In this document: positions 6,267-49,518 of the stretch, one piece after another
How positions within the stretch are numbered: position 1 is the stretch's first letter
How the letters are laid out: each line of letters begins with the position of its first letter
Source of the DNA: an uncultured Rickettsiales bacterium
GTDB taxonomy: Bacteria > Myxococcota_A > UBA796 > UBA9615 > CAYRNR01
Reading direction: 5' to 3'
Length of the DNA stretch: 64,000 bases
NCBI GenBank assembly: GCA_964639985.1
Contig: CAZXHG010000013.1
Span: 1,597 to 65,596, forward strand
Notes under the pieces: generated by a model
Seen by the model: the letters and a program-made list of their open reading frames with translations, nothing else
Told to the model about the DNA's origin: nothing
The model's database searches: none
Program-made: the position numbers and the translations under genes

Positions 6267-6268
6267 CA

Positions 6269-10251: not shown

Positions 10252-11286
10252 GAATGCGCGCCGGGTGATGGCCTCGATCTCGGCACGCGCGTTCGCCACG
10301 GACAGCCCCAGCGACAGCTGCCCCCGCGCCCTTGCGAGGTTGTGCTCCCGACGCGAGCCGAACCTCTCTGCGTTCCAGCCGAAGTAGCGATTCTCGTAGG
10401 CATCGGCGCAGAACCGCGCCGCGAGTTCGATCGCGATCCGCTCCAGCGCGATACCGAATCCCCGAACCTCTTCCGCGGTCACGAATCCCGTTGCCTCGGC
10501 TGCATAGCCCTCGGCCGCGGCCCGCAGGAACGCCAGGTCCAGGGCCGCGTCGACCTCGTCCTCTCCGGAGCGGTTGCACCAGGAGCGCCACGCGTCGCCC
10601 AGGTCGTGGGTCAGCGGCCCCCGCCGCAGCGTGTCCAGGTCGACGAGGCACAGCGCGCGCTGGCTGTCGCCGTCGAAGCGCACGTTGTCCAGCTTGGGAT
10701 CGCCGTGGAGCACCCGGGGCGGGGTATCGGGCAGCGCCGGCAAGGCCGCACCGGCCACCAGGATCGATGAGGCGAGTCCGTCCACCTGCGCCCGGACCGC
10801 GGGATCCGCCTCGTCTGCGCGCAGGCCCGTCAACTTCGCCAGGTGCGCGTCCGTGTCGTGCACCACGCGCGCGAACCCGAACTCGATATCCAGGTCGGCC
10901 AGCGCGCGATGGAACCGCCCCAGCAGCGAGGCCGCCTCGGCCACGGTGTCGGGCGACGACGCGCGCGGCAGCGTGGTGCCCTCCACCCAGCTCAGCGCCC
11001 GCCAGGCGCCGTCGTCGCCGAGGTCGATCCACAGGTCGTCAGCGAGGGTGCGCAGGACGACCGGCGTGGCCATGCCGCGGTCCTGCAGGTGTGCGGTCAC
11101 GCGGTCGATGTCGGCGTTGATCGATGGGGGGAAGATGGGATTCAGCCGCTGCAGGACTCCACGGCCCTGTGCGCACGTGAAGCGGAAGGTCTGATTGATC
11201 AGACCGCCGCCCAGGGGGGCGAGGCGAGCGGCGGGATCGTCGGTGTAGCGCGCCAGCGCGCGCCGGGCGGGATCTACTCCTCCCAC
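10234..11286 (-). CDS. Aminoglycoside-phosphotransferase-fold kinase (N-acetylhexosamine 1-kinase-like)
   Basis: GGGLINQTF loop, VLQRLN, LHGDPKLDNVRF (Brenner motif), VDLDT, RYFG; start codon uncertain (GTG 11286 chosen). Confidence 0.8.
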   Translation of the reverse strand: MGGVDPARRALARYTDDPAARLAPLGGGLINQTFRFTCAQGRGVLQRLNPIFPPSINADIDRVTAHLQDRGMATPVVLRTLADDLWIDLGDDGAWRALSWVEGTTLPRASSPDTVAEAASLLGRFHRALADLDIEFGFARVVHDTDAHLAKLTGLRADEADPAVRAQVDGLASSILVAGAALPALPDTPPRVLHGDPKLDNVRFDGDSQRALCLVDLDTLRRGPLTHDLGDAWRSWCNRSGEDEVDAALDLAFLRAAAEGYAAEATGFVTAEEVRGFGIALERIAIELAARFCADAYENRYFGWNAERFGSRREHNLARARGQLSLGLSVANARAEIEAITRRAFSSVLE

Positions 11287-11753
11287 GCCTTGGCGCACAG
11301 CTCGGACGCCTTGGCCTTGGTGTCGGCCAGGCCGGGCACATCGACCGCGTTGGCCGCCTCGTCCAGGGCGGTCTGGGCCGGCACGCACTCCATGAACGGC
11401 GGCAGGGTCTCCTCCTCACCCCGCGCCTCCACGTCGGCGATGGTCTTGTCGTACATGGCCTTGTGCACGTCGCCGTAGCACAGCTTCCTGGAGTCCTCGA
11501 GCAGCTTCTTGTCGGCTTCGGAGGAGGCCCCCTCCTCGATCATGCCCATGAGGAACGCGCAGGCCAGGTTCTGGTCCGCGCCGTTGCCCTTGTCGACCTC
11601 GGCCTTGATCTCGTCGTAGTTGCTCTTGGCCAGCTCGCCGTTGACCGACAAGCCCGAGTCGCTGGCCGCCTCGCCGCTGCCGCCGCCGCCGCAGCCCGCG
11701 AGGATCAGTCCCATGATGGCCGCGCTCGGTAGCGCGATACGTGCGATGTGCAT
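11274..11753 (-). CDS. Hypothetical lipoprotein
   Basis: GGAGG RBS; LILAGC lipobox followed by a Gly/Ser linker; four further Cys. Confidence 0.75.
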   Translation of the reverse strand: MHIARIALPSAAIMGLILAGCGGGGSGEAASDSGLSVNGELAKSNYDEIKAEVDKGNGADQNLACAFLMGMIEEGASSEADKKLLEDSRKLCYGDVHKAMYDKTIADVEARGEEETLPPFMECVPAQTALDEAANAVDVPGLADTKAKASELCAKAWEE

Positions 11754-31691: not shown

Positions 31692-32021
31692 ATGGACGGC
31701 AGACACGAGGACCGGAGATCGGGGGCGGTGGGCGCGGAGCGCGTCCGCCCGACGCACGGGACCTGGACACGCTGGGTTCCCTGGATCGCGCTGGTGTACA
31801 TCCTGCTGGGGGGCCTGTTCGTGGCGTGGGCCAAGATGGAGACCACCCAGCTGACGTACGAGGTGCACCAGCTTCGCAGTCAGCAATCGGAGTTGCAGCG
31901 GGAGCACCGCTTGCTCAACGCGGAGCTCGCCTCCTTGCGCGCGCCCGCGTACCTCAGTCAACGCGCAGACGAGATCGGTCTGCAGGAGGCCTCCGCTGGC
32001 GCTGTACGCCGCGTGGAGTGA
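31692..32021 (+). CDS. ftsL: Cell division protein FtsL
   Basis: One TM helix plus coiled coil ending LRAP..L...A.EIGL; position between rsmH and ftsI. Confidence 0.85.
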   Translation: MDGRHEDRRSGAVGAERVRPTHGTWTRWVPWIALVYILLGGLFVAWAKMETTQLTYEVHQLRSQQSELQREHRLLNAELASLRAPAYLSQRADEIGLQEASAGAVRRVE

Positions 32022-32038
32022 GAAGGGCTCGGGGGGTC

Positions 32039-34183
32039 ATGGCAGGCCGCAGAACGTTCGACCGGAACCTCGGAACCCCTCGCAGGCCATCCCCGACGAC
32101 CCGGCCTCGCACCACCGGCCGACGGGTGGTGCACTGGCGCTCCCAGGCCGTCCTGCTGCTGTTCGCGCTCGGATTCGGCCTGCTCGCCTACCGCACCGTT
32201 TCCCTGATGGTCGTCCCGGATCCGCAGCTCGAGGAGCGGATCACGAGACAGTACGAGAGCCCGGTGACGCTGCATCCCAAGCGGGGCGCGATCCTGGACC
32301 GCGCGGGCCGGGAACTGGCCGTGTCGGTCACACTGGATTCGATCTTCGCGGACCCGGCGCTCGTGGAAGACCCGATCGCAACGGCGCAGCAACTGGCGCC
32401 GGTGCTCGACCTGTCGCCGCAGGAGCTGGAGCAGGCGCTGCGCCGTGAGCGGAGGTTCGTGTGGTTGAAGCGGCAGGTCGACCCGGACGTCAGCGACGAG
32501 GTGCGGGCGCTGGGGCTCGACGGTGTGCGATGCACACCGGAGGCGAAGCGGCACTACCCCAATGGCATGCTGGCCGGCCAGATCCTCGGCTTCGTGGGTG
32601 TGGACGGCAACGGCCTCGAGGGGCTGGAGGCCCGCTACGACGAGATCCTGATGGGGGAGAAGGAGACCTACGTCTCCCTGCGTGACGGCCGTCGCCGCAA
32701 CATCACGCCCCAGGGGGTGGTGGTCAAGCGCTCCACCGAGGGGCACACCGTCCGGCTGACCATCGACCGGCACATCCAGTTCATCGCCGAGGAGGCGCTG
32801 GGGCGGGCGGTGGAGCTGTACCGCCCCAAGGGTGCGTTCGTGATCGTGATGGACCCCCACACCGGGGACCTGCTGGCCATCGCCAACGCGCCGACGTTCG
32901 ATCCCAACGAGTTCGGTGAATTCGATCGTGCCAGCTTCCGCAACCGCGCGGTCAGCGACTCGTTCGAGCCGGGCTCCACCATGAAGCCCTTCCTCGTCGC
33001 CACGGCGCTCGACCTCGGGCTGGTCACACCGCAGATGGTGTTCGACTGCGAGCACGGCGCGTACCGTATCGGCCGCAACACGATCCACGACACCCACGCC
33101 TACGACCTGATGACCGTGGACGAGATCCTGCAGGTCTCGTCCAACATCGGGTCGGCCAAGATCGCCGAGAAGGTCACCCCAGAGGGCCTGCACGACGCCT
33201 ACGCCCGGCTCGGCTTCGGGCGCTCCAGCGGGGTCGACCTGGCCGGTGAGTCCGGGGGGATCCTGCGGGACTGGCGGAGCTGGCGCCGCATCGGCCTGGC
33301 GACCCACGCCTTCGGCCAGGGCATCTCCGTCACCGGGATCCAGCTCGCGTCTGCGCTCAGCGCCGTGGCCAACGGCGGCACCCTGCTGCAGCCCCGGATC
33401 ATCCACGAGGTGCGGGACCGGCACGCCGAGCTCGTCGATGCCCGCGAGCCCGTGGCCGTGGACAGCTGCTTCGACGCCGACGCCGCACACGAGGTGCGCC
33501 GGATGATGGGCCTGGTCGTGGGGGAGGGCGGGACCGGGACGCGTGCGCGCCTGGATCGGTACTCCTGCGGTGGCAAGACCGGCACCGCCCAGAAGGTCAA
33601 CTCGGCCACCGGGCGCTACGACCGCACCATGTGGGTCAGCTCGTTCATCGGGTTCGCGCCGCTGGAGGATCCCCAGGTCGTGGTGGTCGTGGTGGTGGAC
33701 GAGCCCCAGGGCAAGCACTACGGCGGCACGGTCGCCGGCCCGGTGTTCAAGGAGGTGACCACCCGCACGCTGCAGTACCTGGGCGTGACGCCGCTCCCCG
33801 AGCCGGCGCCGGACGAGCTGCTCGCCGAACAGGTCGAGCAGCTCCAGCAGCAGGACGACCCGGACCCTTGTTCGCCGGAGTCGGACGCATCGGCGATGCG
33901 CGGCGCCGACGACCCGGGCCAGGAGGTGGACGTCGTCCCGCTCACCGAGGGCGACCTGGCCCTGTCCGTGGACGACCTCACCGACGATCTCGACGGCGAG
34001 GAGGCCATGCCCGACCTCGCCGGCCTGACCATCCGGGCAGCCGTGGCCCGGCTCGCCGAACGCGAGGTGGCGCTGCGCATCGAGGGCAGCGGCCGACTGG
34101 TCGAACAGCTTCCGCCCGCAGGCGCTCCGTTGCGCGAGGGCGACGAGGTGAGCCTCACGTTCGGGGAGGCGCAGCCGCAGTGA
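32039..34183 (+). CDS. ftsI: Penicillin-binding protein FtsI/PBP3 with C-terminal PASTA domain
   Basis: RGAILDR, EPGSTMK (SxxK), SSN (SxN), KTGTAQK, acidic linker, MPDLAGL PASTA start. Confidence 0.95.
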   Translation: MAGRRTFDRNLGTPRRPSPTTRPRTTGRRVVHWRSQAVLLLFALGFGLLAYRTVSLMVVPDPQLEERITRQYESPVTLHPKRGAILDRAGRELAVSVTLDSIFADPALVEDPIATAQQLAPVLDLSPQELEQALRRERRFVWLKRQVDPDVSDEVRALGLDGVRCTPEAKRHYPNGMLAGQILGFVGVDGNGLEGLEARYDEILMGEKETYVSLRDGRRRNITPQGVVVKRSTEGHTVRLTIDRHIQFIAEEALGRAVELYRPKGAFVIVMDPHTGDLLAIANAPTFDPNEFGEFDRASFRNRAVSDSFEPGSTMKPFLVATALDLGLVTPQMVFDCEHGAYRIGRNTIHDTHAYDLMTVDEILQVSSNIGSAKIAEKVTPEGLHDAYARLGFGRSSGVDLAGESGGILRDWRSWRRIGLATHAFGQGISVTGIQLASALSAVANGGTLLQPRIIHEVRDRHAELVDAREPVAVDSCFDADAAHEVRRMMGLVVGEGGTGTRARLDRYSCGGKTGTAQKVNSATGRYDRTMWVSSFIGFAPLEDPQVVVVVVVDEPQGKHYGGTVAGPVFKEVTTRTLQYLGVTPLPEPAPDELLAEQVEQLQQQDDPDPCSPESDASAMRGADDPGQEVDVVPLTEGDLALSVDDLTDDLDGEEAMPDLAGLTIRAAVARLAEREVALRIEGSGRLVEQLPPAGAPLREGDEVSLTFGEAQPQ

Positions 34184-35694
34184 AGATCCTGGCCCTGGAC
34201 GAGGCGGCCGCTGCCGTGCCGGAGGCGCGGATCAGCGGGCCGGCGAGTGGCACGATCGTGTCGCTGGCCTACGACTCGAGGTCGGTGGTGCCCGGCGGGC
34301 TGTTCGCGGCCATCCCGGGCACGCTGACCGACGGGCACCGCTTCATCGGTGCGGCCGTGGAGGCCGGCGCCACCGCCGTCGTGCTGGAGCGGCCCGTGGC
34401 CGACCTGCCCGACCACGTGACCGTCCTGCACGTCCCCGATGCCCGGCGCGCCCTGGCGCGCATCGCCGCCGCGTTCCACGGTGATCCCTCTCGTCGCCTG
34501 GCCCTCGCCGGCGTGACGGGGACCAACGGCAAGACCACCATCACCTACCTCGTCGAGGCGATCCTGCAGCGCGCCGGCCGCACGGTGGGAGCCGTCGGGA
34601 CCACCGGCATCCGGCTCGCTGGCCGCGTACGACCGGCCACGCACACCACACCGGAGGGGCCCGAACTGCAGGCCGCGCTGGCCCAGATGCGGGACGCGGG
34701 TGTGGACGCGGTCGTGATGGAGGTCAGCTCCCATGCCCTGCAGCAGGGGCGCGCCGTGGGCTGTCACCTGGACGTGGCCGCATTCGCCAACCTCAGCCGC
34801 GACCACCTGGACTTCCACGGCGACATGGCGCGATACCTCGAGGCCAAGAAGCGCATCGTGTCCGAGCTGCTGGCCTGCAGCGACAAGCCCCGACGTCGCC
34901 TGGTGGTCAACGTGGACGATCCCGAGGGGGAGGGATTCGTGGCTGGCTGGCGCGACGTGATCCGCGTGTCCGCTGGCGCCGTGACCGCGGCGGACGTGGT
35001 CCCGAGCGAGGTCGCGTTCGATCTCGAGGGGATCCGAGGGCAGCTGGTCACGCCGGCGGGACCGATCCGGCTGGAGTGCTCCCTGGTGGGGGCCTTCAAC
35101 CTGGCCAACGTGGTCGTGGCCACGGGGATCGCGCTGGCGCTGGACGTCCATCCGGATGCCATCGCCGACGGGCTGCGGGCCGTGCGCCGCGTGCCCGGGC
35201 GGCTGGAGCCGGTGACGCTGCCGCGCGGGCCAGGCCCCAGCGTGGACGTGCCCACCGTACTCGTGGACTACGCGCATTCGCCCGACGCCCTGCAACGGGT
35301 GCTGGCCGCGCTGCGACCCCTGGTGCCCGGACGCATCGTGACGGTGTTTGGCTGCGGTGGCGACCGCGACCGCGGCAAGCGACCGCTGATGGGTGAGGCC
35401 GCCGCGGGCGGCTCGGACCTGTCCGTGGTGACCACCGACAACCCACGCAGCGAGGACCCCGCGGCCATCATCGCCGAGGTCCTGCCCGGCGTGCAGCGGA
35501 CGGGCGGCGATCACCTCGTGGAGGTTGATCGCCGCCGCGCGATCCATCGGGCCGTGGCCGAGGCGGACCCGGCGGACCTGGTGCTGGTCGCGGGCAAGGG
35601 GCACGAGCAGGTGCAGGTCGTGGGAGACCACGCCCACCGGTTCGACGATCGGGACGTGGCGCTCGAGGCGCTCGAGCGACGGGTGACCCCATGA
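34180..35694 (+). CDS. murE: UDP-MurNAc-tripeptide synthetase (meso-DAP type)
   Basis: GVTGTNGKTT, HTTPE, MEVSSHA, DYAHSPD, GCGGDRD, DNPR (DAP specificity motif), AGKGHE. Confidence 0.97.
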   Translation: MKILALDEAAAAVPEARISGPASGTIVSLAYDSRSVVPGGLFAAIPGTLTDGHRFIGAAVEAGATAVVLERPVADLPDHVTVLHVPDARRALARIAAAFHGDPSRRLALAGVTGTNGKTTITYLVEAILQRAGRTVGAVGTTGIRLAGRVRPATHTTPEGPELQAALAQMRDAGVDAVVMEVSSHALQQGRAVGCHLDVAAFANLSRDHLDFHGDMARYLEAKKRIVSELLACSDKPRRRLVVNVDDPEGEGFVAGWRDVIRVSAGAVTAADVVPSEVAFDLEGIRGQLVTPAGPIRLECSLVGAFNLANVVVATGIALALDVHPDAIADGLRAVRRVPGRLEPVTLPRGPGPSVDVPTVLVDYAHSPDALQRVLAALRPLVPGRIVTVFGCGGDRDRGKRPLMGEAAAGGSDLSVVTTDNPRSEDPAAIIAEVLPGVQRTGGDHLVEVDRRRAIHRAVAEADPADLVLVAGKGHEQVQVVGDHAHRFDDRDVALEALERRVTP

Positions 35695-37106
35695 GCACCC
35701 TGTTCCACCCTCCTCGCGAGATCGCGACCGAGCAGCTCCTGGCCGCGGTCTCGGGACAGCTGTCGGGCACGGTCGGACCGGGCCCCTGGCGGGTGACCAC
35801 CGACTCTCGTGCGGCAGGGCCGGGCACGGTGTTCTTCGCGTTGGCGGGTGATCGTTTCGATGGCCACGACTTCGTGGGCGACGTGCTGGCACGGGGTGGG
35901 ACGGGCGCGGTGGTGGCGGAGTCTCACGCCTCGGCCCGCGCCGAGGTGCCCGCTGGCAGCTTCGTGGTGGGGGTGGACGATCCCCTGGTCGCCCTGGGGC
36001 AGCTGGCCCGGTCCGTGCGGCGCAGCGCTGACGTGCCCGTCATCGGCCTGACCGGCTCCAGCGGCAAGACCACCACGCGAGACATGATCGCCGCGGTGAT
36101 GCGCACTGCCGGCTCGGGGCTGGCCACCACGGGCAACTTCAACAACCTCGTGGGCCTGCCCCTGACCCTGATGCACCTGCAGGACGATCACGCCTGGATC
36201 GTGCTGGAGATGGGGATGTCCGCACCCGGCGAGATCCGGGAGCTGGCCCGCATCGCCGAGCCCGGCATCCGGCTGGTGACCAACGTGGCCGCCGCCCACC
36301 TGGAGTTCTTCGCGGACCTCGACGGCGTGGCCCGGGCCAAGGGCGAGCTGTTCGAGGACGCGAGGCCAGGTGAGGTGCTGATCACCAACGCGGACGATCC
36401 GCGCAGCGCGCTGTTCCCGCGACCGGACGGCACGCGGGAGATCCGTTTCGGCGCCCGCGCCGAGGCCGACGTGCGCATCCTGCGGGTGGACGCGGCCGAC
36501 CTGGACGGCAGCCGTGCCGTGCTGTCCCTGTTCGGCGACGAGCTGACCTGCGACGTGCCGCTGCCGGGGAGGCACAACGTGGCCAACGCGGCCGCCGCGC
36601 TGGCGGTGGCCTGGGCCGCAGGCGTCGACCCCGAGGCCGCGGCGGCGACGCTGTCCGGCGTGCGTGTCACCGGGGGGCGTATGCAGGTGCGCGAGATCGG
36701 CGATGTGCACGTGATCGACGACACGTACAACGCCAACCCCCGCTCCGTGGCGGCCGCGCTCGAGACCCTGGTCACGGGCGAGGGTGGCGGGCGGCGGTTC
36801 GCGGTGCTGGGCGACATGCTGGAGCTGGGGGTCACCGGCGCGGAGCTCCACCGGGAGATCGGGGAGACGGCCGCGGCCCTCGATGTGGACCGGCTGATGG
36901 TGACCGGGCCCCTGGGCCGGCACCTGGCCGAGGGTGCGCGAGCAGCCGGCATGAGCCCGGAACGGGTGGGCTGGTATGCGTCCCACGACGACCTCGTACA
37001 TGACCTGCTCGCCGAGCTCGAGGCCGGCGATCGCGTCCTGGTCAAGGGATCGCGGGGCATGCACATGGAGCGGGTGGTCCAGGGAATCGAGGCACGACAG
37101 CGATGA
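35691..37106 (+). CDS. murF: UDP-MurNAc-pentapeptide synthetase
   Basis: TDSR, TGSSGKTTTRD, NFNNLVGLP, EMGMSAPGEI, DTYNANP, GDMLELG, KGSRG. Confidence 0.97.
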   Translation: MSTLFHPPREIATEQLLAAVSGQLSGTVGPGPWRVTTDSRAAGPGTVFFALAGDRFDGHDFVGDVLARGGTGAVVAESHASARAEVPAGSFVVGVDDPLVALGQLARSVRRSADVPVIGLTGSSGKTTTRDMIAAVMRTAGSGLATTGNFNNLVGLPLTLMHLQDDHAWIVLEMGMSAPGEIRELARIAEPGIRLVTNVAAAHLEFFADLDGVARAKGELFEDARPGEVLITNADDPRSALFPRPDGTREIRFGARAEADVRILRVDAADLDGSRAVLSLFGDELTCDVPLPGRHNVANAAAALAVAWAAGVDPEAAAATLSGVRVTGGRMQVREIGDVHVIDDTYNANPRSVAAALETLVTGEGGGRRFAVLGDMLELGVTGAELHREIGETAAALDVDRLMVTGPLGRHLAEGARAAGMSPERVGWYASHDDLVHDLLAELEAGDRVLVKGSRGMHMERVVQGIEARQR

Positions 37107-38449
37107 GGCTCCGCGAGACCAAGGTGCTGGTGATGGGCCTGGGCCGTAGCGGCCAGGCGGCCCTCCGCCTGTGCGCCCGCAGCGGGGCCCGCGTCACCGG
37201 GACCGACCGACGCAGCGCCGACCAGCTGGCCGCCGTGGTCGCCCTCGCCAGGAGCGAGGGAGCCTCGCTCGTGCTGGGTGAGCACCGCGAGCAGGACTTC
37301 CTCGACGCGGATCTGATCGTGCTCAGTCCGGGGATACCGCCGGAGCAGGCGCACGTGGCCGCGGCCATCCGGGCGGGGGTGCCCGTGATCGGTGAGCTCG
37401 AGCTGGCCTGTTCGCAGCTGGACTGTGTGGTCGTGGGCATCACCGGGACCAACGGCAAGTCGACCACCACCACCTTCTGCGGGGACCTGCTGGTCGCAGC
37501 CGGGCGGTCGGTGTTCGTCGGGGGCAACCTCGGCGTGCCCCTCAGCGACGGTGTGCTCGAGGGCCCCTACGACCTCGCCGTGGTCGAGGTGAGCTCCTTC
37601 CAGCTCGAGACCGCGCCCACCTTCCACCCCCGCGTGGCCGCCCTGCTCAACCTGACCGAGGACCACCTGGACCGGTACCCGAGCTTCGAGGCCTACTGCG
37701 ACGCCAAGGCCAACATCTTCGTGAACCTGGGCGAGGACGACACCGTCGTCTACAACGCCTCCGATACCCGGGTCGTGGCGATGATCTCGCACGTCCCGGG
37801 TCGCCACCTGGCCTTCTCCTTGCGCGACCACGGCGTCGACGGCGCGTTCCTCGACGGTGGTTCACTCGTCGTGCGGCGAGGCGGAGTGGTCCAGCGCGTG
37901 GAGCTGGAACCGTTCGCCGTGCCGGGTGCCCACAACATCGAGAACCTGATGGCCGCGCTGCTTTGCACGCTCGCCGCAGGCGCGGATCTCGAGGCCGTGG
38001 CCGAGGCGCTGCCGACGCTGCGCGGGCTGCCGCACCGGATGGAGTGGGTGGGAACGGTCGATGACGTGGCCTTCTACAACGACAGCAAGGCCACCAACGT
38101 CGCGTCCGCGGCCAAGACCCTAGAGGGGTGCCCCCGCCCGGCCGTGGTCCTGCTCGGCGGCAAGGACAAGGGGGGCGACTACGGGCCGCTGGTCCAGGCC
38201 CTGGCCGAGCAGGCCCGGGGTGCGGTCGTGTTCGGCCAGGCCGCGGACGTGATCGCCGGGGCCCTGACCGAGGGCGGCGTCCCGTTCGAGCGAGCGGAGG
38301 ACCTGGCTGGCGCCCTGGCCGCGGCGCAGACGATCGCCCGCCCGGGCGATGCGGTGCTGCTGAGCCCAGCGTGCTCCAGCTACGACCAGTTCCGTGACTA
38401 CGAGCAGCGCGGGGACACCTTCCGCACGCTGGTGGAGGATCTGCGATGA
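37103..38449 (+). CDS. murD: UDP-MurNAc-L-Ala--D-Glu ligase
   Basis: GLGRSG, SPGI, ITGTNGKSTTT, GGNLG, EVSSFQL, HRME, NDSKATN, LSPACSSYDQF. Confidence 0.97.
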   Translation: MRLRETKVLVMGLGRSGQAALRLCARSGARVTGTDRRSADQLAAVVALARSEGASLVLGEHREQDFLDADLIVLSPGIPPEQAHVAAAIRAGVPVIGELELACSQLDCVVVGITGTNGKSTTTTFCGDLLVAAGRSVFVGGNLGVPLSDGVLEGPYDLAVVEVSSFQLETAPTFHPRVAALLNLTEDHLDRYPSFEAYCDAKANIFVNLGEDDTVVYNASDTRVVAMISHVPGRHLAFSLRDHGVDGAFLDGGSLVVRRGGVVQRVELEPFAVPGAHNIENLMAALLCTLAAGADLEAVAEALPTLRGLPHRMEWVGTVDDVAFYNDSKATNVASAAKTLEGCPRPAVVLLGGKDKGGDYGPLVQALAEQARGAVVFGQAADVIAGALTEGGVPFERAEDLAGALAAAQTIARPGDAVLLSPACSSYDQFRDYEQRGDTFRTLVEDLR

Positions 38450-39642
38450 AGGCCGTTCGGCGACACGTGGACCCCGTACTGATGACCTGTGTGCTGGGTC
38501 TCGTCGGACTCGGCATCGTCATGGTCTACTCGGCCGGCGGTGTGCGTGCGGCCGACGTGTACGGCCAGGAACACTTCTACCTGTCGCGGCAGGCCGCGTT
38601 CGCCTGTGTGGGGCTGCTCGCGATGGCGATCGCGGCACGCATCCCCTACCAGTTCTACCGGCGCTGGACGTACCCCATCCTGGGCACGGTGATGGTGATG
38701 CTGGTGCTGGTGTTCATCCCCGGGGTGGGCAGCACCATGGGTGGTGCCACCCGCTGGATCAACCTGCACTTCATCTACCTGCAGCCCTCGGAGCTGGCCA
38801 AGTTCGCGCTCGTGCTGTACCTGGCCTACTCGCTGGCCAAGAAGCAGGAGCACATCGACACGTTCTCGGTGGGCATCCTGCCCCACCTGATCGTCGCGGG
38901 ACTGGCCCTGGCGCTGATCCTGCTGGAGCCGGACTTCGGCACCACCGCGGTGCTGGCCTCGATCCTGTTCGCGATGATGTTCATCGCCGGGACCCGGATC
39001 CTGCACCTGTCGGCCATCTTCACCGTGGCCCTGCCCCTGGCCTTCGTGGTGCTGATCGGGGCGGAGTACCGGCGCCGCCGGTTGCTGGCGTTCCTCGATC
39101 CCTGGGCCGACCAGGCGGACACCGGCTTCCACATCATCCAGAGCTGGCTGGCGTTCCACCGCGGGGGGGCCTTCGGGGTCGGGCTCGGCGCGGGCACCCA
39201 GAAGCTGTTCTACCTGCCCGCAGCGCACACGGACTTCATCTTCAGCGTGGTAGGCGAGGAGCTGGGCCTGGTCGGTGTGACGCTGACCCTGGCCGCCTTC
39301 GCCGTGTTCATCTGGCGGGGGACCACGCTGTCGCGCCGAGCTCCCGACCTGTTCGGCCAGCTGCTGGGCACGGGCATCACCTTCATCATCGGCCTGCAGG
39401 CCGTGATCAACATGATGGTCGTCACCGGATTGCTGCCCACCAAGGGGTTGACCTTGCCCTTCGTCAGCTACGGAGGATCCTCCCTGGTGGCCTACCTGTT
39501 CATGGTGGGCGTGCTGCTCAACATCAGCTCCCAGGCCCTGGTGGGCAACCGCCGGGTTCGCGGGGGGCAACCGGACGAGCCGCAGCGGCGGTGGTCTCCG
39601 GTGGGCGGGGGCAAGGTGCCCGACCGGGGGGACTGGCTGTGA
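38446..39642 (+). CDS. ftsW: SEDS peptidoglycan polymerase FtsW
   Basis: GATRWI, QPSELAK, EPDFGT, LPAAHTDFIF, LPTKGLTLPFVSYGGSS. Confidence 0.97.
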   Translation: MKAVRRHVDPVLMTCVLGLVGLGIVMVYSAGGVRAADVYGQEHFYLSRQAAFACVGLLAMAIAARIPYQFYRRWTYPILGTVMVMLVLVFIPGVGSTMGGATRWINLHFIYLQPSELAKFALVLYLAYSLAKKQEHIDTFSVGILPHLIVAGLALALILLEPDFGTTAVLASILFAMMFIAGTRILHLSAIFTVALPLAFVVLIGAEYRRRRLLAFLDPWADQADTGFHIIQSWLAFHRGGAFGVGLGAGTQKLFYLPAAHTDFIFSVVGEELGLVGVTLTLAAFAVFIWRGTTLSRRAPDLFGQLLGTGITFIIGLQAVINMMVVTGLLPTKGLTLPFVSYGGSSLVAYLFMVGVLLNISSQALVGNRRVRGGQPDEPQRRWSPVGGGKVPDRGDWL

Positions 39643-39692
39643 CGACACTGCGACTGGACGCCCGCCAGCGAGCGGGCTGGAGGCGAGCATGA
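39639..39692 (+). pseudogene. 17-codon mini-ORF (MTTLRLDARQRAGWRRA) at the murG position; putative deletion scar
   Basis: GTG overlaps the ftsW TGA (GTGA) and its TGA overlaps the murC ATG (ATGA). The murG origin is inference. Confidence 0.45.
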
Positions 39693-41092
39693 AGGCGCTG
39701 TTCCGCAGGACCCGACGGGTCCACTTCGTCGGCATCGGCGGGATCGGCATGAGTGGGATCGCCGAGGTCCTGATCAACCTGGGCTACGAGGTGTCCGGGT
39801 CGGACCTGCGCGAGTCGCCGGTCACGCGCCAGCTCGTCTCCCAGGGCGCGGAGGTGGCCCTCGGCCACGCGGCGGACAACGTCGAGGGGTCCCACGTGGT
39901 GGTGATCAGCTCGGCGGTGAAGGACGACAACGTGGAGGTGGTGGCGGCCTACGACCGGGGGATCCCGGTGATCCCGAGGGCCGAGATGCTCGCCGAGCTG
40001 ATGCGCATGAAGCACGGCCTCGCCGTGGCCGGCAGCCACGGCAAGACCACGACCACGTCCATGCTGGCCGAGTGCCTGGCCGCGGCCAACATGGATCCCA
40101 CGGTGGTCGTGGGCGGTCGGCTCAACTCCATCGACAGCAACGCCAAGCTGGGGGAGGGGGACTTCCTGGTCGCCGAGGCCGACGAGAGCGACGGCTCCTT
40201 CCTCAAGCTGTCGCCCACGGTCGCGATCGTGACCAACATCGACCGCGAGCACATGGACCACTACCAGGACTTCGACACCCTGGTGCAGGCGTTCCTCGAC
40301 TTCATCAACAAGGTGCCGTTCTACGGCGCGGCCGTGATCTGCCTGGACCACCCCGTGATCCAGAAGATCATCCCCCGCATCCACAAGCGCTACATCACCT
40401 ACGGGCTGTCCTCGCAAGCCGAGGTGCACGCCGTGGACCTGCACTTCAGCGGCGGCACCAGCGTGTTCACGGTGATGCACAACGACCGATGGCTGGGCAA
40501 GGTCGAGCTGAACATGCCCGGCCGACACAACGTGCTCAACGCCCTGGCCGTGGTCGCGGCCAGCCTCGAGGTGGACATCCCGTTCAAGGTCGTGCGTCGT
40601 GCGTTGAACCAGTTCGGCGGCGTGTCGCGGCGATTCACGGAGCGTGGCAACGAGGGCGGCGTGCTGGTGATCGACGACTACGGGCATCACCCCGTGGAGA
40701 TCCGCTCCACCCTGCAGGCGGCCCGCGAGGGATTCGGCAGGCGCGTGATCTCCGTGTTCCAGCCGCACAGGTTCTCGCGCATACAGGACCTGCAGGATGA
40801 TTTCATGAGCGCATTCAACGACACGGATCTGCTCGTGGTGACCGACATCTACGCCGCCGGGGAGCGGCCGGTGGAGGGGGTCACCGGTCGGGGCCTGTAC
40901 CAGGGACTGCGGGAGCACGGTCACAAGAATGCGGTGTACCTGCCGGATCGTGCGGCGATCGTGGCCTACCTGCTGGACACGGTGGAGAAGGGCGACATCG
41001 TGATCACGCTGGGTGCGGGTGACGTGTACCGGGTCGGTGAGGAGCTGCTCGAAGGACTTCGCGAACGAGGTAGGGGTGGCGATGGCGGTTGA
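39689..41092 (+). CDS. murC: UDP-MurNAc--L-alanine ligase
   Basis: HFVGIGGIGMSG, GSHGKTTTT, EADESDGSF, DDYGHHP, QPHRF, GAGD. Confidence 0.98.
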   Translation: MKALFRRTRRVHFVGIGGIGMSGIAEVLINLGYEVSGSDLRESPVTRQLVSQGAEVALGHAADNVEGSHVVVISSAVKDDNVEVVAAYDRGIPVIPRAEMLAELMRMKHGLAVAGSHGKTTTTSMLAECLAAANMDPTVVVGGRLNSIDSNAKLGEGDFLVAEADESDGSFLKLSPTVAIVTNIDREHMDHYQDFDTLVQAFLDFINKVPFYGAAVICLDHPVIQKIIPRIHKRYITYGLSSQAEVHAVDLHFSGGTSVFTVMHNDRWLGKVELNMPGRHNVLNALAVVAASLEVDIPFKVVRRALNQFGGVSRRFTERGNEGGVLVIDDYGHHPVEIRSTLQAAREGFGRRVISVFQPHRFSRIQDLQDDFMSAFNDTDLLVVTDIYAAGERPVEGVTGRGLYQGLREHGHKNAVYLPDRAAIVAYLLDTVEKGDIVITLGAGDVYRVGEELLEGLRERGRGGDGG

Positions 41093-42062
41093 CCCCCGGC
41101 GACGCGGCCGGTCGCGCCAGCGGCTGGACGAGGCCCGGCGGCAGCAGCTCGCTGCGCTGGAGGCAGGGGACGTGCGCTTCGACGAGTCCATGTGCGCCTG
41201 GACCGCGTTCCGCAGCGGTGGCCCGGCCGAGGCCCTGGTGGCCGTGCAGGACGTTCCCGGGTGGCTGGCCCTGCTGCGCTGGTGTCGCGAGGAGCGCGTC
41301 CCGGTGTTCGTGCTCGGCGAGTCGCACGGCGTGCTGGTCGGGGACGGCGGCGTGGACGGGGTCGTGGTGGTCACCCGGGGCTGTCACACGGTACGCCCGG
41401 TGGACCGGGAGATCGACCCGGTCGAGATCCTGGCCGAGGTGCCCGCGGCCGTGATCGTGGCCGAGGCCGGGGCCACCCTGGGCAGGCTGGCGCAGGCGTC
41501 CGCGGACCTCGGCTTCGACGTGCCCTTCGGCGCCCCAGGGCAGGACGGCACCGTGGGGGGCGTGGTGCGCCGCTGCTTCGGCGAGCTGCGCGAACACGTG
41601 GTGGCCGTGGGCGTGCTCACGGATCGCGCCCGGATCCAGGTCCGGCTGGCGCGGGAGGTGGATCCCGACGTGGACGCGTTCCCCCTGCGTGTGAGGCAGG
41701 CCATCGCCTGGGTCGCGTTCGCGCTGCCCCGGTCCACGACCGGCGATCTGTTCGCCGGTGAAGAAATTACCACTGGTAGCAGGAAAACAGAGGAAAACGT
41801 GCGGAATGGTAGATTTCGCATGTTCCTGGATCCTCGGGAATCCACAGCCTCCGAGGTCCTGCAATCCGTGGACGTCAAGGGCATCCGCCTTCGTGATGTC
41901 ACGCTGGACGAGCAGGATCCCAACGTGGCCGTGAACCTGGGGGAGGGGTCGAGTCACGACCTCCAGCTGCTCGTCGCCTACCTGGCCGAGCGGGTTTCCA
42001 GTCGTGCTGGTGTGAAGCTGGAACCCGCCTATCGTGCGCGTGGTAAAAAAAGACAAACTTGA
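41082..42062 (+). CDS. MurB-like FAD-fold protein with degenerate active-site motifs
   Basis: Sits in the murB slot. WTAFRSGGPA, VLVGDGGVDGVV, AEAG, GTVGG, VKG...NVAVNLG...GVKLEP align to MurB, but the GxGSN, YRxS, GSxF and ExE motifs are altered. Confidence 0.8.
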   Translation: MAVDPRRRGRSRQRLDEARRQQLAALEAGDVRFDESMCAWTAFRSGGPAEALVAVQDVPGWLALLRWCREERVPVFVLGESHGVLVGDGGVDGVVVVTRGCHTVRPVDREIDPVEILAEVPAAVIVAEAGATLGRLAQASADLGFDVPFGAPGQDGTVGGVVRRCFGELREHVVAVGVLTDRARIQVRLAREVDPDVDAFPLRVRQAIAWVAFALPRSTTGDLFAGEEITTGSRKTEENVRNGRFRMFLDPRESTASEVLQSVDVKGIRLRDVTLDEQDPNVAVNLGEGSSHDLQLLVAYLAERVSSRAGVKLEPAYRARGKKRQT

Positions 42063-42074
42063 CGCGCGCGTAGG

Positions 42075-42103
42075 TTGACAATATTGGCGCAAACCCCCAA
42101 AAT
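42075..42103 (+). promoter_or_regulatory. Internal sigma70 promoter upstream of ddl (TTGACA-17-CAAAAT)
   Basis: -35 at 42075-42080, -10 at 42098-42103, in an AT-rich 86-bp gap. Confidence 0.65.
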
Positions 42104-42148
42104 CGACATTGCGGTGGTAGCTGTATTTCAGGCTGTACAGGCAGGCGG

Positions 42149-43090
42149 ATGCTGGATGCGTGGCGGGACAGGAAGATCGCGGTGCTCCTCGGCGGGCTGA
42201 GTGCCGAGCGCGACGTCTCGCTGGCCAGCGGTGCCGCTGTCGCATCGGCCCTGCGCGATCGTGGCTACGACATCGCCGAGATCGACGTGGGGCGGGACCT
42301 CTCCAGTCAACTCCACGACGCAGGCGCCGAGGCAGCCGTGATCCTGCTGCACGGCACGTTCGGCGAGGACGGCTGTGTTCAGGGCGTGCTCGAACTGCTC
42401 GACATCCCGTACTCCGGGTCGGGCGTGGCCGCATCCGCGCTGGCCATGGACAAGGTCCGGACCAAGCGACTGCTGGAGGCCAGCGGTCTGCCCGTCCCCC
42501 GGGACCGGGTGCTCACACCGGACGAGGCGCTCGCCGCAAACGTGCACATCCCGTTCGGCATCCCGCTGGTGGTCAAGCCCGCGGCCGAGGGCTCGAGCGT
42601 GGGGACGGCGGTGGTCACGGACCGCGCTGATCTCGCCGACGCGCTGACCGACGCGGCGCGCTACGGCCGGGTCCTGGTCGAGGAATTCGTGGCCGGCCCC
42701 GAGGTCACGGTGGCCATGCTGGACGGACGGCCGCTGCCGCCGGTGGAGATCCGACCCCACGACGGGTTCTACGACTACCGCAACAAGTACACCAAGGGGC
42801 GGACCGTCTACATCTGCCCCGCAGAGATCAGCACGGCCGCGACCGCGAGCATCCAGCGGATGGCCGTGAAGGCCTGTGACCTGGTGGGTGTGCGCGGCGT
42901 GGCGCGCGTGGACTTCATGCTCGGCGGTGGCGACGCCCCGCACCTGCTCGAGATCAACACCATCCCCGGCATGACCGAGCTGTCGCTGGTGCCCATGGCC
43001 GCCCGGGAGGCGGGCCTGTCCTTCGGTGACGTGGCCGAGCGTATGCTGGCCGGAGCGCGGTGCGAGCTGCGCGCCGCGGAGGCGGACTGA
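42149..43090 (+). CDS. ddl: D-alanine--D-alanine ligase
   Basis: GGLSAERDVSL, LHGTFGEDG, MDK, EGSS, FYDYRNKY (Tyr omega loop), EINTIPG. Confidence 0.97.
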   Translation: MLDAWRDRKIAVLLGGLSAERDVSLASGAAVASALRDRGYDIAEIDVGRDLSSQLHDAGAEAAVILLHGTFGEDGCVQGVLELLDIPYSGSGVAASALAMDKVRTKRLLEASGLPVPRDRVLTPDEALAANVHIPFGIPLVVKPAAEGSSVGTAVVTDRADLADALTDAARYGRVLVEEFVAGPEVTVAMLDGRPLPPVEIRPHDGFYDYRNKYTKGRTVYICPAEISTAATASIQRMAVKACDLVGVRGVARVDFMLGGGDAPHLLEINTIPGMTELSLVPMAAREAGLSFGDVAERMLAGARCELRAAEAD

Positions 43091-44508
43091 TGGGCGTGCT
43101 GGACACCCAGACGGTCCGTCGCACGGCCAACCGCAGGTTGGGGCGGGAGAAGGTCACCGAGGCGCCGCAGCGGAGCACGCGCGAGGCCCGGAGCCGACGT
43201 GCGCCCGACAGCGAGGTCCGTCCCCGACTGTCGAAGAAGCAGCCGTCCGACAGCTTCCGGGCGGTGTCCCCGGGTCGCGGATTCCCGCTCCAGGTGTGGT
43301 TCGAGGAGGCGCTGGCCGCCCTGATCGACGTCAGCCGACGCGCCGTGGGCGCGACCGGGTGGTTCGGTGCGGCGCTCAGCGCGGTGGTCGGGTCGGTGGC
43401 GTTCGCCCTGGTCTGGTCCGCGGCCACCTCCCTGTCCCTGGGCTGGCGCGCATTCCGCTGGAGCCTGGCGATGGCCCGCCGGGGGCTGGTGTTCCTGATG
43501 CCCCACCTGCGAACGGGCGTGGAGCATTCCGCACGGATCGGCAGGCAGGGCGCGATCCACTCGGCCCGGGCCGGTCGGCAGGTGGCCACGCAGACCCGCA
43601 CGCAGATCCGGACTCAGGCCGAGGACATGCGGGACGGGTTCCCGGACCTGCAGGAAGGCGCCGAGGCCGCGCAGCGGGCCTGGCTGCGGTTCCTCGGCTA
43701 TGCCGTGTACCAGCGCCGCGAGCTGCAGCGACAGGGATTCCTCGATCGGCCGGGCTGGCGCCAGGCGCTGAACGCGACGACCGTGGGCCTCGTGATCGGC
43801 GGGACCCTGCTGACCGTGACCGCGGCCGCGCTGTTCGGACCGCAGCTGCTGCGGGAGAGCGACGCCCTGTGTCTCCACGAGATCAGCGTGCGTGGCAACG
43901 ACATGGTGCCCGTCGGCGTGATCCTGGAGACCGCGGACGTGGATATCGGCGACAACCTCACCACGCTGGACCTCGCGGCCATCGCCGACGAGCTGTCCGC
44001 GTTGCCCTGGATCGAGTCCGCCACCCTGCGGCGCAGCTACCCGGACCGGCTGACGGTGCAGGTGGTCGAGCGCCAGCCCGCGCTGATGCTGGCCGACGAG
44101 CAGCTGTGGTTCGTGGACCACCTGGGCGAGGTGTTCAAGCCGGTGGACCCGACCGAGTGGACCGACCTGCCGGTGATCACTGGCATCGACGTGGACCAGC
44201 GCGCCGTGGATCCGGACGGCAGCCGGGAACGACTGCGTCGCGCCCTGGCGGTGATCGCGGCGATCGGCGAGTCACAGTCGCTGGAAGCCGACGACATCGG
44301 CGAGGTCGCCGTGGAGCGGGGTGGCCTGTACCGGGTGCGCCTGGTCGAGCAGCAGGTGGACCTCCGGCTGGCCGAGGACAACTACGAGACCGGGTTGCAG
44401 CGACTCGATTCCCTGCTGACCCGCGAGCTGATCGCCCTGGACCAGGTGGAGAGCCTGGACCTGGCGCTGCGCAACCAGGTGGTCGCGACCTGGAAGGCGG
44501 AGTTATGA
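43090..44508 (+). CDS. ftsQ: Cell division protein FtsQ with long N-terminal extension
   Basis: POTRA region (ISVRGN...LPWIESATLRRSYPDRLTVQVVERQP), DLPVITG, LDLALRNQVV; position between ddl and ftsA. Confidence 0.88.
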   Translation: MGVLDTQTVRRTANRRLGREKVTEAPQRSTREARSRRAPDSEVRPRLSKKQPSDSFRAVSPGRGFPLQVWFEEALAALIDVSRRAVGATGWFGAALSAVVGSVAFALVWSAATSLSLGWRAFRWSLAMARRGLVFLMPHLRTGVEHSARIGRQGAIHSARAGRQVATQTRTQIRTQAEDMRDGFPDLQEGAEAAQRAWLRFLGYAVYQRRELQRQGFLDRPGWRQALNATTVGLVIGGTLLTVTAAALFGPQLLRESDALCLHEISVRGNDMVPVGVILETADVDIGDNLTTLDLAAIADELSALPWIESATLRRSYPDRLTVQVVERQPALMLADEQLWFVDHLGEVFKPVDPTEWTDLPVITGIDVDQRAVDPDGSRERLRRALAVIAAIGESQSLEADDIGEVAVERGGLYRVRLVEQQVDLRLAEDNYETGLQRLDSLLTRELIALDQVESLDLALRNQVVATWKAEL

Positions 44509-48450: not shown

Positions 48451-48526
48451 TGGCAGGCGAGGAAGGACTCGAACCTCCAGCCAACGGTTTTGGAGACCGC
48501 TGCTCTACCATTGGAGCTACTCGCCC
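48451..48526 (-). tRNA. trnW: tRNA-Trp (CCA)
   Basis: Cloverleaf; anticodon loop CT-CCA-AA; G73; encoded CCA end. Confidence 0.95.
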
Positions 48527-48535
48527 GCGATGAGC

Positions 48536-48620
48536 TGGTGGGTCAGGCAGGAATCGAACCTGCAAGCCAGCGGCGGCGGATCTACAGTCCGCTGGGCTCA
48601 CCACACTGCCCAACTGACCC
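48536..48620 (-). tRNA. trnY: tRNA-Tyr (GTA)
   Basis: Loop CT-GTA-GA; variable arm; encoded CCA. Confidence 0.92.
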
Positions 48621-48635
48621 ACGAAAAGGTGAAAC

Positions 48636-48715
48636 TGGTGGGGACGGTCCGGTTCGAACGGACGACCTCCTGGGCCACGACCAGGCGCTCTGACCAGAGA
48701 CTGAGCTACGTCCCC
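48636..48715 (-). tRNA. trnH: tRNA-His (GTG), atypical (C33, A73, no G-1)
   Basis: Loop TC-GTG-GC; acceptor GGGGACG/CGTCCCC; enlarged D-loop; encoded CCA. Confidence 0.8.
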
Positions 48716-48716
48716 G

Positions 48717-48791
48717 TGGCGACTCCCCGGAGATTCGAACTCCGAACCACGCGGTTAACAGCCGCGCGCTCAGCCGTTGAGCTAGGGAGTC
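48717..48791 (-). tRNA. trnN: tRNA-Asn (GTT)
   Basis: Loop CT-GTT-AA; G73; encoded CCA. Confidence 0.93.
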
Positions 48792-48797
48792 ATTTCC

Positions 48798-48874
48798 TGG
48801 TACCGCTGCCCGGACTCGAACCGGGAGCCTCCTGTGTATCAGACAGACGCTCTCGACCATTGAGCTACAGCGGT
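48798..48874 (-). tRNA. trnI: tRNA-Ile (GAT)
   Basis: Loop CT-GAT-AC; A73; encoded CCA. Confidence 0.92.
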
Positions 48875-48879
48875 ACGTG

Positions 48880-48954
48880 TGGAGGCGGCACCCGGACTCG
48901 AACCGGGGATCGAGGAGTTGCAGTCCTCTGCCTTTCCATCTTGGCCATGCCACC
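48880..48954 (-). tRNA. trnC: tRNA-Cys (GCA)
   Basis: Loop CT-GCA-AC; U73; encoded CCA. Confidence 0.93.
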
Positions 48955-48967
48955 TCGGGTACCTTCC

Positions 48968-49042
48968 TGGTCACAGGGGGAGGACTCGAACCTCGCGCTG
49001 GTCCGCTCATGAGACGGACAGGCACATCCCGTGCGCCCTGCG
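48968..49042 (-). tRNA. Atypical tRNA with CAT anticodon (Met/Ile2, possibly degenerate)
   Basis: Loop CT-CAT-GA; T-loop TTCGAGT; shortened D-arm without U8/A14; C-C mismatch at the base of the T-stem; encoded CCA. Confidence 0.6.
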
Positions 49043-49045
49043 ATC

Positions 49046-49121
49046 TGGAGCGGGTAGCCGGACTCGAACCGGCCGCCGTCTGGTTGGAAGCCAGGCGCTC
49101 TACCTGATGAGCTATACCCGC
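49046..49121 (-). tRNA. trnG: tRNA-Gly (TCC)
   Basis: Loop CT-TCC-AA; U73; encoded CCA. Confidence 0.93.
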
Positions 49122-49131
49122 CCGTGGATGA

Positions 49132-49218
49132 TGGTGCCGGAGGCGGGAGTCGAACCCGCACGACCACGAGGGCCACTGCGTCCTGAGCGCAGCGTGTCTG
49201 CCATTTCACCACCCCGGC
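49132..49218 (-). tRNA. trnL: tRNA-Leu (CAG)
   Basis: Loop CT-CAG-GA; long variable arm; encoded CCA. Confidence 0.95.
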
Positions 49219-49242
49219 AATGCCCCCTGTCGGGGGCTGAAC

Positions 49243-49318
49243 TGGAGCGCCCACCGGGAGTCGAACCCGGAATCTACGGATTAAGAGTCCGCCGCTCTAC
49301 CAGCTGAGCCATGGGCGC
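49243..49318 (-). tRNA. trnK: tRNA-Lys (CTT), U73
   Basis: Loop CT-CTT-AA; acceptor GCGCCCA/TGGGCGC; discriminator T; encoded CCA. Confidence 0.92.
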
Positions 49319-49319
49319 G

Positions 49320-49402
49320 TGGCGGGGGTGGGAGTCGAACCCACCTGCCCTCTCGGGACTGGGATATGAGCCCAGTGACCGGCCGTTGGTTCCATCCCCG
49401 CG
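49320..49402 (-). tRNA. Initiator-like tRNA-fMet (CAT) with a long variable arm
   Basis: 5' CGCGGGG, C1-C72 mismatch, GGG/CCC in the anticodon stem, loop CT-CAT-AT, 14-nt variable region CCC-GAGA-GGG; no encoded CCA. Confidence 0.75.
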
Positions 49403-49442
49403 TCATTTTCCTGTTGCACGTCACCTCGGGACTCCGGGCGGG

Positions 49443-49518
49443 TGGCGGGAGCGACGGGGCTCGAACCCGCTGCCTCCGGCTCGACAGGCCGGCGTCCTTC
49501 CTCCAGGACCTCGCCCCC
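49443..49518 (-). tRNA. trnD: tRNA-Asp (GTC)
   Basis: Loop CT-GTC-GA; G73; encoded CCA; first gene of the array. Confidence 0.92.

Follow-up and report, generated by a model that had tools for sequence, protein, structure and literature searches.

MurB and related systems

Peptidoglycan synthesis is generally considered to depend on MurB (UDP-N-acetylenolpyruvoylglucosamine reductase, EC 1.3.1.98), a universal, essential and single-copy step that is also viewed as a drug target. In the stretch of 64,000 nucleotides analysed here (contig CAZXHG010000013.1 of assembly GCA_964639985.1, positions 1,597–65,596, referred to as the window), the place where murB is expected in the division and cell wall (dcw) cluster, with murC on one side and ddl on the other, is occupied by a MurB-like open reading frame (ORF) at 41082–42062 on the + strand, the catalytic residues of which are replaced. 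It is probably an old, selected, non-catalytic derivative of MurB that has been kept beside MurC, with UDP-N-acetylmuramic acid (UDP-MurNAc) supplied from outside the dcw cluster. In the literature on inactive, degenerate or second MurB proteins, no description of a conserved dead MurB at the murB position was found.

Among the described systems, the window protein compares best with the type II MurBs, those from Staphylococcus aureus (PDB code 1HSK), Listeria monocytogenes (3TX1) and Brucella (9DTK). It is similar to them in fold, in domain order, in the placement of its gene between murC and ddl, and in the presence of the GGPA and GTVGG motifs. It differs by the replacement of the catalytic Arg, Ser and Glu, of the His and Asn of the substrate site, and of the GxGSN and MNAG motifs, by the presence of basic tails, and by scores that are far under the family cut-offs.

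EnvC and NlpD are degenerate LytM factors, dead hydrolase homologues that activate amidases, in which the fold is kept, the catalytic residues are lost and the protein is retained for a regulatory protein-protein function. Their fold and cell compartment are unrelated to those of the window protein, and the analogy is one of principle only.

Natural MurC-MurB fusions, found in Verrucomicrobia alongside other natural Mur chimeras, are a precedent for a physical association of MurC and MurB and suggest that the two work side by side (PMC10214165). The corresponding genes are coupled in every relative of the window; unlike in the fusions, they encode two separate proteins, and the MurB part appears to be dead. 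A second precedent comes from Pseudomonas aeruginosa, where MurA activates LpxC and the catalytically inactive MurA(C117S) still does so (PMC9995270). This is an early peptidoglycan enzyme with a second, non-catalytic regulatory function, although the enzyme is a different one and its wild type is still catalytic.

Life without MurA/MurB chemistry, by salvage of N-acetylmuramic acid (MurNAc), is also documented. The AmgK-MurU route, of which an AmgK-type kinase is the first enzyme, bypasses MurA and MurB, and MurNAc auxotrophy has been described in Tannerella (PMC5371407, PMC7670621). With the systems of Tannerella forsythia and of Pseudomonas (AmgK-MurU-MupP), the window may have a NahK/AmgK-like kinase in common. 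In Tannerella, however, neither murA nor murB is left (PMC7670621), whereas a dead copy is kept here, and no protein of the MurA or MurU type is present among the ORFs scanned in the 64-kb window.

The MurB-like gene and its product

The dcw cluster of the window lies on the + strand and consists, in order, of mraZ, rsmH, ftsL, ftsI, murE, murF, murD, ftsW, murC, the MurB-like ORF, ddl, ftsQ, ftsA and ftsZ. The upstream neighbour murC (39689–41092, +) is translationally coupled to the MurB-like ORF, and the downstream neighbour ddl (42149–43090, +) was assigned with Pfam. The ORF, the full-length or F-type form of the dead protein, starts with ATG, ends with TGA and encodes 326 residues; the frame is intact, in agreement with the initial annotation, which had reported no frameshift. 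The GC content of the window is about 70%, and the GC pattern over the codon positions of the ORF is that of a real gene. The reading frame is not an assembly artefact: over 40559–43707, a Logan contig assembled independently from a different sequencing run shows zero differences.

At the murC junction (41067–41092, +), the two genes share 11 nucleotides, from the ATG at 41082 to the end of the murC stop codon (41090–41092), and a Shine-Dalgarno-like sequence, GAGGTAGGGG, is located at 41067–41076. The window was compared at this junction with seven relatives (L001, L002, L003, L039, L041, L043 and L098). The start codon overlaps the murC stop in 8 of 8 genomes: the overlap is 11 nucleotides long in five of them, the window among these, and 4 or 1 nucleotides in the remaining three relatives, and a GAGG-type Shine-Dalgarno motif precedes the start in all five genomes with the longest overlap. 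The gene caller selects a GTG at 41172 as the start (P0001, 296 residues), which would remove a conserved tail and the N-terminal helix; the conserved overlap and the Shine-Dalgarno motif favour 41082 over 41172. The same two features indicate that the ORF is translated, and the dead MurB would be translated together with MurC via the overlapping stop and start codons.

By sequence comparison and structure prediction, the product is a MurB homologue with the three-domain MurB fold. Pfam detects FAD_binding_4 (44 bits) and MurB_C (33 bits). The NCBIfam MurB model PRK13905 aligns with the protein end to end, with a score of 99.8 bits that is below the cut-off of 259, and TIGR00179 gives 45.9 bits, below its cut-off of 144.5. 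A hidden Markov model (HMM) built here from canonical MurBs gives 164 bits, as compared to 249–392 for working MurBs. The closest solved structures by sequence are MurBs, with E-values from 1e-12 to 1e-8. The AlphaFold2 model, based on 119 homologues, has a predicted local distance difference test score (pLDDT) of 87.6 and a predicted template-modelling score (pTM) of 0.85, with disorder only at residues 1–3 and 225–239. The top matches of this model in Foldseek are the MurB structures 1hsk, 3tx1, 9dtk and 4pyt, with template-modelling (TM) scores of 0.74–0.84.

Loss of the catalytic and flavin-binding motifs

The catalytic triad of canonical MurB is R159/S229/E325 in E. coli, R188/S238/E308 in S. 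aureus and R179/S229/E299 in the HMM numbering. In alignments with canonical MurBs, the triad Arg, Ser (or Cys) and Glu correspond to Asp, Arg and Ala of the window protein. In the segment aligned to FxYRxS (41664–41699, +), Tyr-Arg aligns with Val-Asp, which places Asp at the position of the catalytic Arg (HMM 179). The motif AGSxFKNP is replaced by RFRMFLDP (residues 244–251; 41811–41834, +), where the proton-donor Ser/Cys has become Arg and the Asn has become Asp. LExEV is replaced by LEPAY (residues 313–317), with Ala in place of the catalytic Glu, and is followed by the basic tail RARGKKRQT (together 42018–42059, +). The substrate site is altered too: the segment GIRLRDVTLDEQDPNV (41880–41927, +) includes DPNV (residues 279–282) in place of HANF, which changes His-Ala to Asp-Pro.

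The flavin site shows replacements of the same kind. The motif GxGSN, which binds the pyrophosphate of flavin adenine dinucleotide (FAD), reads GESHG (residues 79–83; 41316–41330, +), and GxGxG in the relatives. GTVGGAxxMNAG is replaced by GTVGGVVRRCFG (residues 156–167; 41547–41582, +), where the flavin loop has become RR-x-aromatic and is followed by a deletion of four residues. The catalytic and cofactor sites hold bulky charged residues. The initial annotation had read these motifs from the sequence as GESHG, RRCFG, a segment FxYRxS lacking its Arg, RFRMFLDP, DPNV and LEPAY, and all of these readings hold in the alignments with canonical MurBs. The ancestral domain-1 motif GGPAEA (residues 46–51; 41217–41234, +) is retained in the alignment; G46 and G47 are invariant, and P48 and A49 nearly so, in 119 sequences.

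Both ends of the protein carry basic tails, as had been proposed before. The Arg-rich N-terminal tail RRRGRSRQR (residues 6–14; 41097–41123, +) is without counterpart in canonical MurB, and R8, R10, D16 and R20 of this region are invariant within the clade. The C-terminal tail ends with GKKRQT, and the N- and C-terminal tails are both conserved among the relatives.

The triad R-[S/C]-E is found in 348 of 381 sampled MurB-family proteins. In the related loci, all 62 MurB ORFs that score at least 249 bits with the canonical HMM keep it, except for that of L052 and that of L019, which is cut by the contig end. Judging from the replaced motifs, the window protein is probably unable to bind or use flavin for the reduction of enolpyruvyl-UDP-N-acetylglucosamine. 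It would be a MurB-derived pseudoenzyme, in which the three-domain fold is kept and the flavin chemistry is lost; the description of the gene as a MurB pseudoenzyme retained as an intact ORF, made before from the letters alone, is borne out by the lost triad and flavin motifs in combination with the predicted MurB fold.

Distribution of the full-length form

The window-type dead MurB is present at the same position in seven GTDB species-level metagenome-assembled genomes (MAGs; L001/L040, L002/L042, L003, L039, L041, L043 and L098) and on the metagenome contigs L199, L201, L202 and L203. The protein database contains five close homologues (P0002–P0006) with 40–47% identity; the remaining proteins have at most 33% identity over most of their length, with the single exception of a short local match of 39%. 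The identical dead state, together with new motifs, is observed in at least 15 sequences (L001–L003, L039, L041, L043, L098, L199, L201, L202 and P0002–P0006). The new motifs common to the clade are GxGxG, GTVGGxxRRx[FWY], [KR]xR[LM]FxDP, GIRLR, DPN and AYRxxGKK. About 70 alignment columns, the newly gained motifs included, are invariant among clade sequences of 40–47% identity. Among 1.84 billion representative proteins, a profile of the family scores above 170 bits with only about 10 clusters at 50% identity. The organism is found in marine metagenomes.

The public labels of the relatives, “uncultured Rickettsiales bacterium” and “uncultured Enterobacterales bacterium” (L001–L003, L039–L047 and L059–L076), clash with their GC content of 64–73% and with their Myxococcota-like best matches. 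The MAGs that carry the window-type protein have 67–72% GC, which fits ill with the “Rickettsiales” label. For MurG and a sugar kinase, the closest homologues from named organisms belong to Myxococcota (such as Corallococcus, Sorangium and Nannocystis), and two members of the wider group are labelled Myxococcota by NCBI. The MAG labels are probably errors of taxonomy mapping.

The naming of the proteins has consequences as well. The window-type proteins are called “UDP-N-acetylmuramate dehydrogenase” by JGI, and automated pathway reconstructions will consequently count the MurB step as present.

Evolutionary rate and selection

Nonsynonymous substitution rates (dN) and their ratio to the synonymous rates (dN/dS) were calculated pairwise by the NG86 method for the closest genome pairs, L001-L002 and L003-L098; the values are rough in a genome with biased GC at third codon positions (GC3) and are to be read as relative. 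The MurB-like gene has a dN of 0.27–0.29 and a dN/dS of 0.33–0.38, as compared to a dN of 0.04 and a dN/dS of 0.08–0.10 for murC, and its nonsynonymous rate is about 7 times that of murC. The dN/dS is 0.11–0.16 for ddl, 0.10–0.16 for ftsW and 0.15–0.25 for murD. Between the window and its relatives, MurC is 80–83% identical and the MurB-like protein only 39–46%.

Differences in the MurB-like gene amount to 0.46–0.47 at the third codon position versus 0.20–0.27 at the first and second, a ratio of about two. The most constrained part of the protein is the C-terminal third, residues 241–326, with a dN/dS of 0.12–0.43. The gene is thus far less constrained than its neighbours, yet it is under purifying selection and does not evolve neutrally. 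The initial annotation had offered relaxed selection, with UDP-MurNAc coming by another route, as one explanation of the lost residues; the weaker constraint agrees with this, while no alternative route was found in the available sequence. Selection would maintain the dead MurB for a non-catalytic task residing mainly in domain 1 and in the C-terminal, formerly substrate-binding domain.

Sister lineages and the mini-MurBs

In a wider survey, with MurC used as the anchor, the region downstream of murC was compared in 80 related genomes. In a neighbour-joining tree of MurC, a single-protein tree in which the branching order is unreliable, every genome with a degenerate MurB falls into one group. 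This group contains the window clade together with L052, L091, L067, L076, the L059 group, L044, L046, L096, L086 and L047. The MurB of L052 (P0247, named only “FAD-binding protein” by NCBI) still scores 268 bits and has G/G/A at the triad; from its sequence it is graded as an early stage of degeneration. L091, L067, L076 and the L059 group have a strongly diverged MurB, and in L044, L046, L096 and L086 murC is followed by ORFs of only about 175–235 residues (about 235 in L044). L051, L055 and the related P0248, P0387 and P0395 possess a canonical MurB (R-C-E) at the same dcw position. Recent replacement by horizontal gene transfer was considered as the origin of the canonical MurB in L051 and L055 and was rejected, since lineage-specific features, such as the LLAWCR motif, are common to it and the dead forms.

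The short proteins, called here mini-MurBs, are represented by P0250, P0285, P0296 and P0299, with 179–202 residues. The ORFs located directly after murC in L044 (7334–8116), L046 (2179–2760) and L096 (7305–7940) are of the same kind. They contain MurB domain 1, a short linker and domain 3, while domain 2, the site of the flavin loop and of the catalytic Arg, is deleted, and therefore they cannot be flavin reductases. The derived motifs RLFxDP and DPN are common to the mini-MurBs and the window protein, which argues for the descent of both types from one already dead ancestor. The mini-MurBs are 48–49% identical to each other and have long invariant stretches, for example RWCRRERL and R-L-R-G. 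Their composition argues that selection preserves domains 1 and 3 of the dead MurB, and hints at which surfaces may carry the retained function. The structure model of a mini-MurB, calculated from 4 sequences, is poor (pLDDT 65), with confidence in its C-terminal domain alone.

In the sister group formed by L051, L055, L044, L046, L096, L086, L047, L284 and L286, the dcw cluster is also without murD and ddl, and has the order murF-mraY-ftsW-murG-murC-(MurB or mini-MurB)-ftsQ. In L044, a radical-SAM-like gene is inserted between murG and murC.

MurB-family proteins with a broken triad also occur outside the clade (P0071, P0092, P0252, P0255, P0282, P0333 and others). In at least one further lineage, the dcw position is likewise taken by a dead MurB, P0071. 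P0092, with R-R-E at the triad, is encoded in a polysaccharide gene cluster, where it adjoins a UDP-glucose dehydrogenase, an epimerase and a GT2 glycosyltransferase, and it could be a paralogue of MurB that acts on a different substrate.

Proposed role and the possibility of decay

The dead MurB would most likely act as a partner, structural or regulatory, of MurC or of other cytoplasmic Mur enzymes. This role is favoured because the fold is kept, the former active sites are filled by bulky charged residues, moderate purifying selection is focused on the domain that formerly bound the substrate, the coupling to murC is invariant, and a version with two domains exists. That the pseudoenzyme is retained is further supported by the occurrence of the dead form throughout the clade, by the dN/dS value, by the excess of third-position differences, by the constant coupling to murC and by the sister forms lacking the FAD domain. 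A clade with a dead MurB at the canonical position poses testable questions, namely how UDP-MurNAc is made and what a MurB fold does when it is not an enzyme.

Several observations weigh against a retained function. Among close relatives, the MurB-like proteins are only 62–66% identical where MurC is 93–94% identical, which points to weak constraint, and the GC3 of the gene is below that of its neighbours (0.84 vs 0.90–0.93). At 70% GC long ORFs persist by chance, and the intactness of the ORF alone is weak evidence. In L086 there is only a 17-bit remnant of MurB, and in L047 about 530 nucleotides separate murC from ftsQ without a detectable MurB remnant; a graded series that ends in near loss also fits slow decay. 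None of the MurB-like gene region is present in three metatranscriptome runs of the same study. That the protein is dispensable as an enzyme is a conclusion drawn from sequence only.

The main rival explanation is that of a decaying relic, in which the reductase function has moved or is not needed, the dcw copy erodes and the protein is inert, while the frame stays open owing to the rarity of stop codons at 70% GC and to the coupling of murC, ddl and ftsQ. The sevenfold higher dN relative to murC and the lower GC3 are as expected for a relic, and so is the series that leads from L052 (dead triad, 268 bits) through the diverged full-length proteins and the internally deleted short forms of 190–260 residues to a remnant or nothing (L086 and L047). 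Antisense frames in the region also hold ORFs of more than 400 codons, and the position of murB in the dcw cluster of Bacillus subtilis reportedly matters, a point that Real and Henriques are said to have made in 2006. However, the dN/dS of 0.33–0.38, with about twice as many differences at the third codon position as at the first and second, speaks against an inert protein, and the constraint is concentrated in one domain. The invariant columns, about 70 in number, include newly acquired motifs, and the alignment extends to the final residues, where the C-terminal tail is conserved; a frameshift has thus not been tolerated. Compact and Met-initiated, the mini forms have a mutual identity of 48–49% and long invariant stretches, which is unlike random erosion. 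The fast rate and the graded series fit decay, whereas the domain-specific constraint, the new motifs and the conserved mini proteins do not, and on balance a relic is considered doubtful.

Supply of UDP-MurNAc

The genes murC, murD, murE, murF, ddl, ftsW and ftsI are kept under strong constraint, from which it follows that the organism makes peptidoglycan and needs UDP-MurNAc. With a dead MurB at the murB position, the reductase step must come from outside the dcw cluster. The candidates would be an unlinked murB or an analogue elsewhere in the genome, or else MurNAc salvage. A second MurB homologue is found neither in any frame of the 64-kb window nor in the other sequence fetched from these genomes. 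A vertically inherited second murB was sought with the canonical sister protein P0248 as the query, in a search that was not exhaustive; the relatives with 48–56% identity are of the L051 type, the three that were checked sit in dcw clusters of their own, and no sign of a second copy emerged.

At 10234–11388 on the – strand, the window contains the gene for a NahK/AmgK-type anomeric N-acetylhexosamine 1-kinase, which matches PDB entries 4wh1 and 4ocj with an E-value of 6e-32. In the relatives L204 and L205, the dcw contig also encodes this kinase. The protein is not named by NCBIfam. Kinases of this type are widespread in Myxococcota, Sorangium, Nannocystis and Enhygromyxa included, and their occurrence is not limited to genomes in which MurB is dead. 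An AmgK-MurU operon was considered and rejected, as a MurU-like neighbour stands beside the kinase in 0 of 80 loci and the kinase also occurs outside the clade. The kinase is taken as a lead, and not as evidence for a bypass.

In the salvage explanation, which is compatible with a retained non-catalytic MurB, MurB activity is entirely absent from the lineage, UDP-MurNAc is formed from MurNAc by an anomeric kinase and a uridylyltransferase, the MurNAc perhaps originates from the walls of prey, and the dead MurB is a subunit of the Mur machinery. In addition to the kinase in the window, in L204 and in L205, the documented MurA/MurB bypass and the auxotrophy of Tannerella (PMC5371407, PMC7670621) speak for such a route, as does the fact that the best matches of the lineage are to Myxococcota, a phylum rich in predators. 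Against it stand the general occurrence of the kinase in that phylum, the lack of a NCBIfam name for it, and the result that no MurU-like nucleotidyltransferase is present beside the kinase in the 80 loci or among the ORFs scanned in the window; the explanation is thus unlikely. Its more specific form, in which an entire uncultured marine lineage of Myxococcota, without any MurB enzyme, builds its wall from MurNAc salvaged, for example, from prey or neighbours, and in which the dead MurB, full-length or mini, is an obligatory non-catalytic subunit for docking to MurC, is improbable to the same degree. If true, it would add a novel class of pseudoenzyme of the cell wall and a further example of MurNAc auxotrophy.

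A still-active reductase or other oxidoreductase with a rearranged active site, which draws its residues from shifted positions such as the clade-invariant R205, R246 and D279, would agree with the high-confidence predicted fold, the retained GGPA and GTVGG and the GxGxG conserved in relatives, the several clade-invariant charged residues and the lack of a second murB in any sequence at hand from these genomes, but it is very improbable, considering that the whole catalytic triad, the flavin loop and the Ser-Asn pair within GxGSN are replaced together in the alignments and that the NAGxxG loop is deleted, that the scores are 100–164 bits versus 249–392 for working MurBs, that relatives with identical derived motifs are without domain 2, and that the evolution is fast for an essential single-copy enzyme.

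Other features of the window

The gap of 86 nucleotides upstream of ddl contains a sigma-70-like promoter match, TTGACA-17 nucleotides-CAAAAT (42075–42103, +), which agrees with the consensus at 10 of 12 positions; one such match was found versus 0.1 expected. It is a consensus match only, and could be an internal promoter for ddl-ftsQAZ.

The genes mraY and murG are not in the dcw cluster of the window, as seen in the region 35691–39689: murF and murD meet at 37103–37106, and ftsW ends at 39642, just ahead of the murC start at 39689. In all relatives examined, mraY is placed between murF and murD, and murG between ftsW and murC. No homologue of MraY or MurG is found across the 64-kb window, and both junctions were confirmed by independent contigs. 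A relocated murG, possibly with murB beside it, was sought with the L001 MurG as the query and rejected, since every match belongs to the dcw cluster of some other organism and the sample of the window is not represented among them.

FtsI (PBP3; 31826–34183, +) contains a C-terminal PASTA domain, as do its counterparts in the relatives L038 and L201. PASTA domains are more typical of Gram-positive penicillin-binding proteins and kinases. FtsQ (43060–44508, +) has an Arg-rich N-terminal extension of about 270 residues ahead of the POTRA domain, and the relatives are alike in this respect.

An array of 11 tRNA genes is located just downstream of the dcw cluster, at 48451–49518 on the – strand. 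It comprises tRNAs for Trp, Tyr, Asn, Ile, Cys, Gly, Leu, Lys, Met and Asp, and one further gene, at 48639–48715, detected by Rfam only. Elsewhere in the window, the region 754–8916 encodes a respiratory-looking set made of a multihaem cytochrome c, a cytochrome b, an ExtQ-like membrane cytochrome b, a FAD/4Fe-4S oxidoreductase and a HdrD-like CCG-domain protein.

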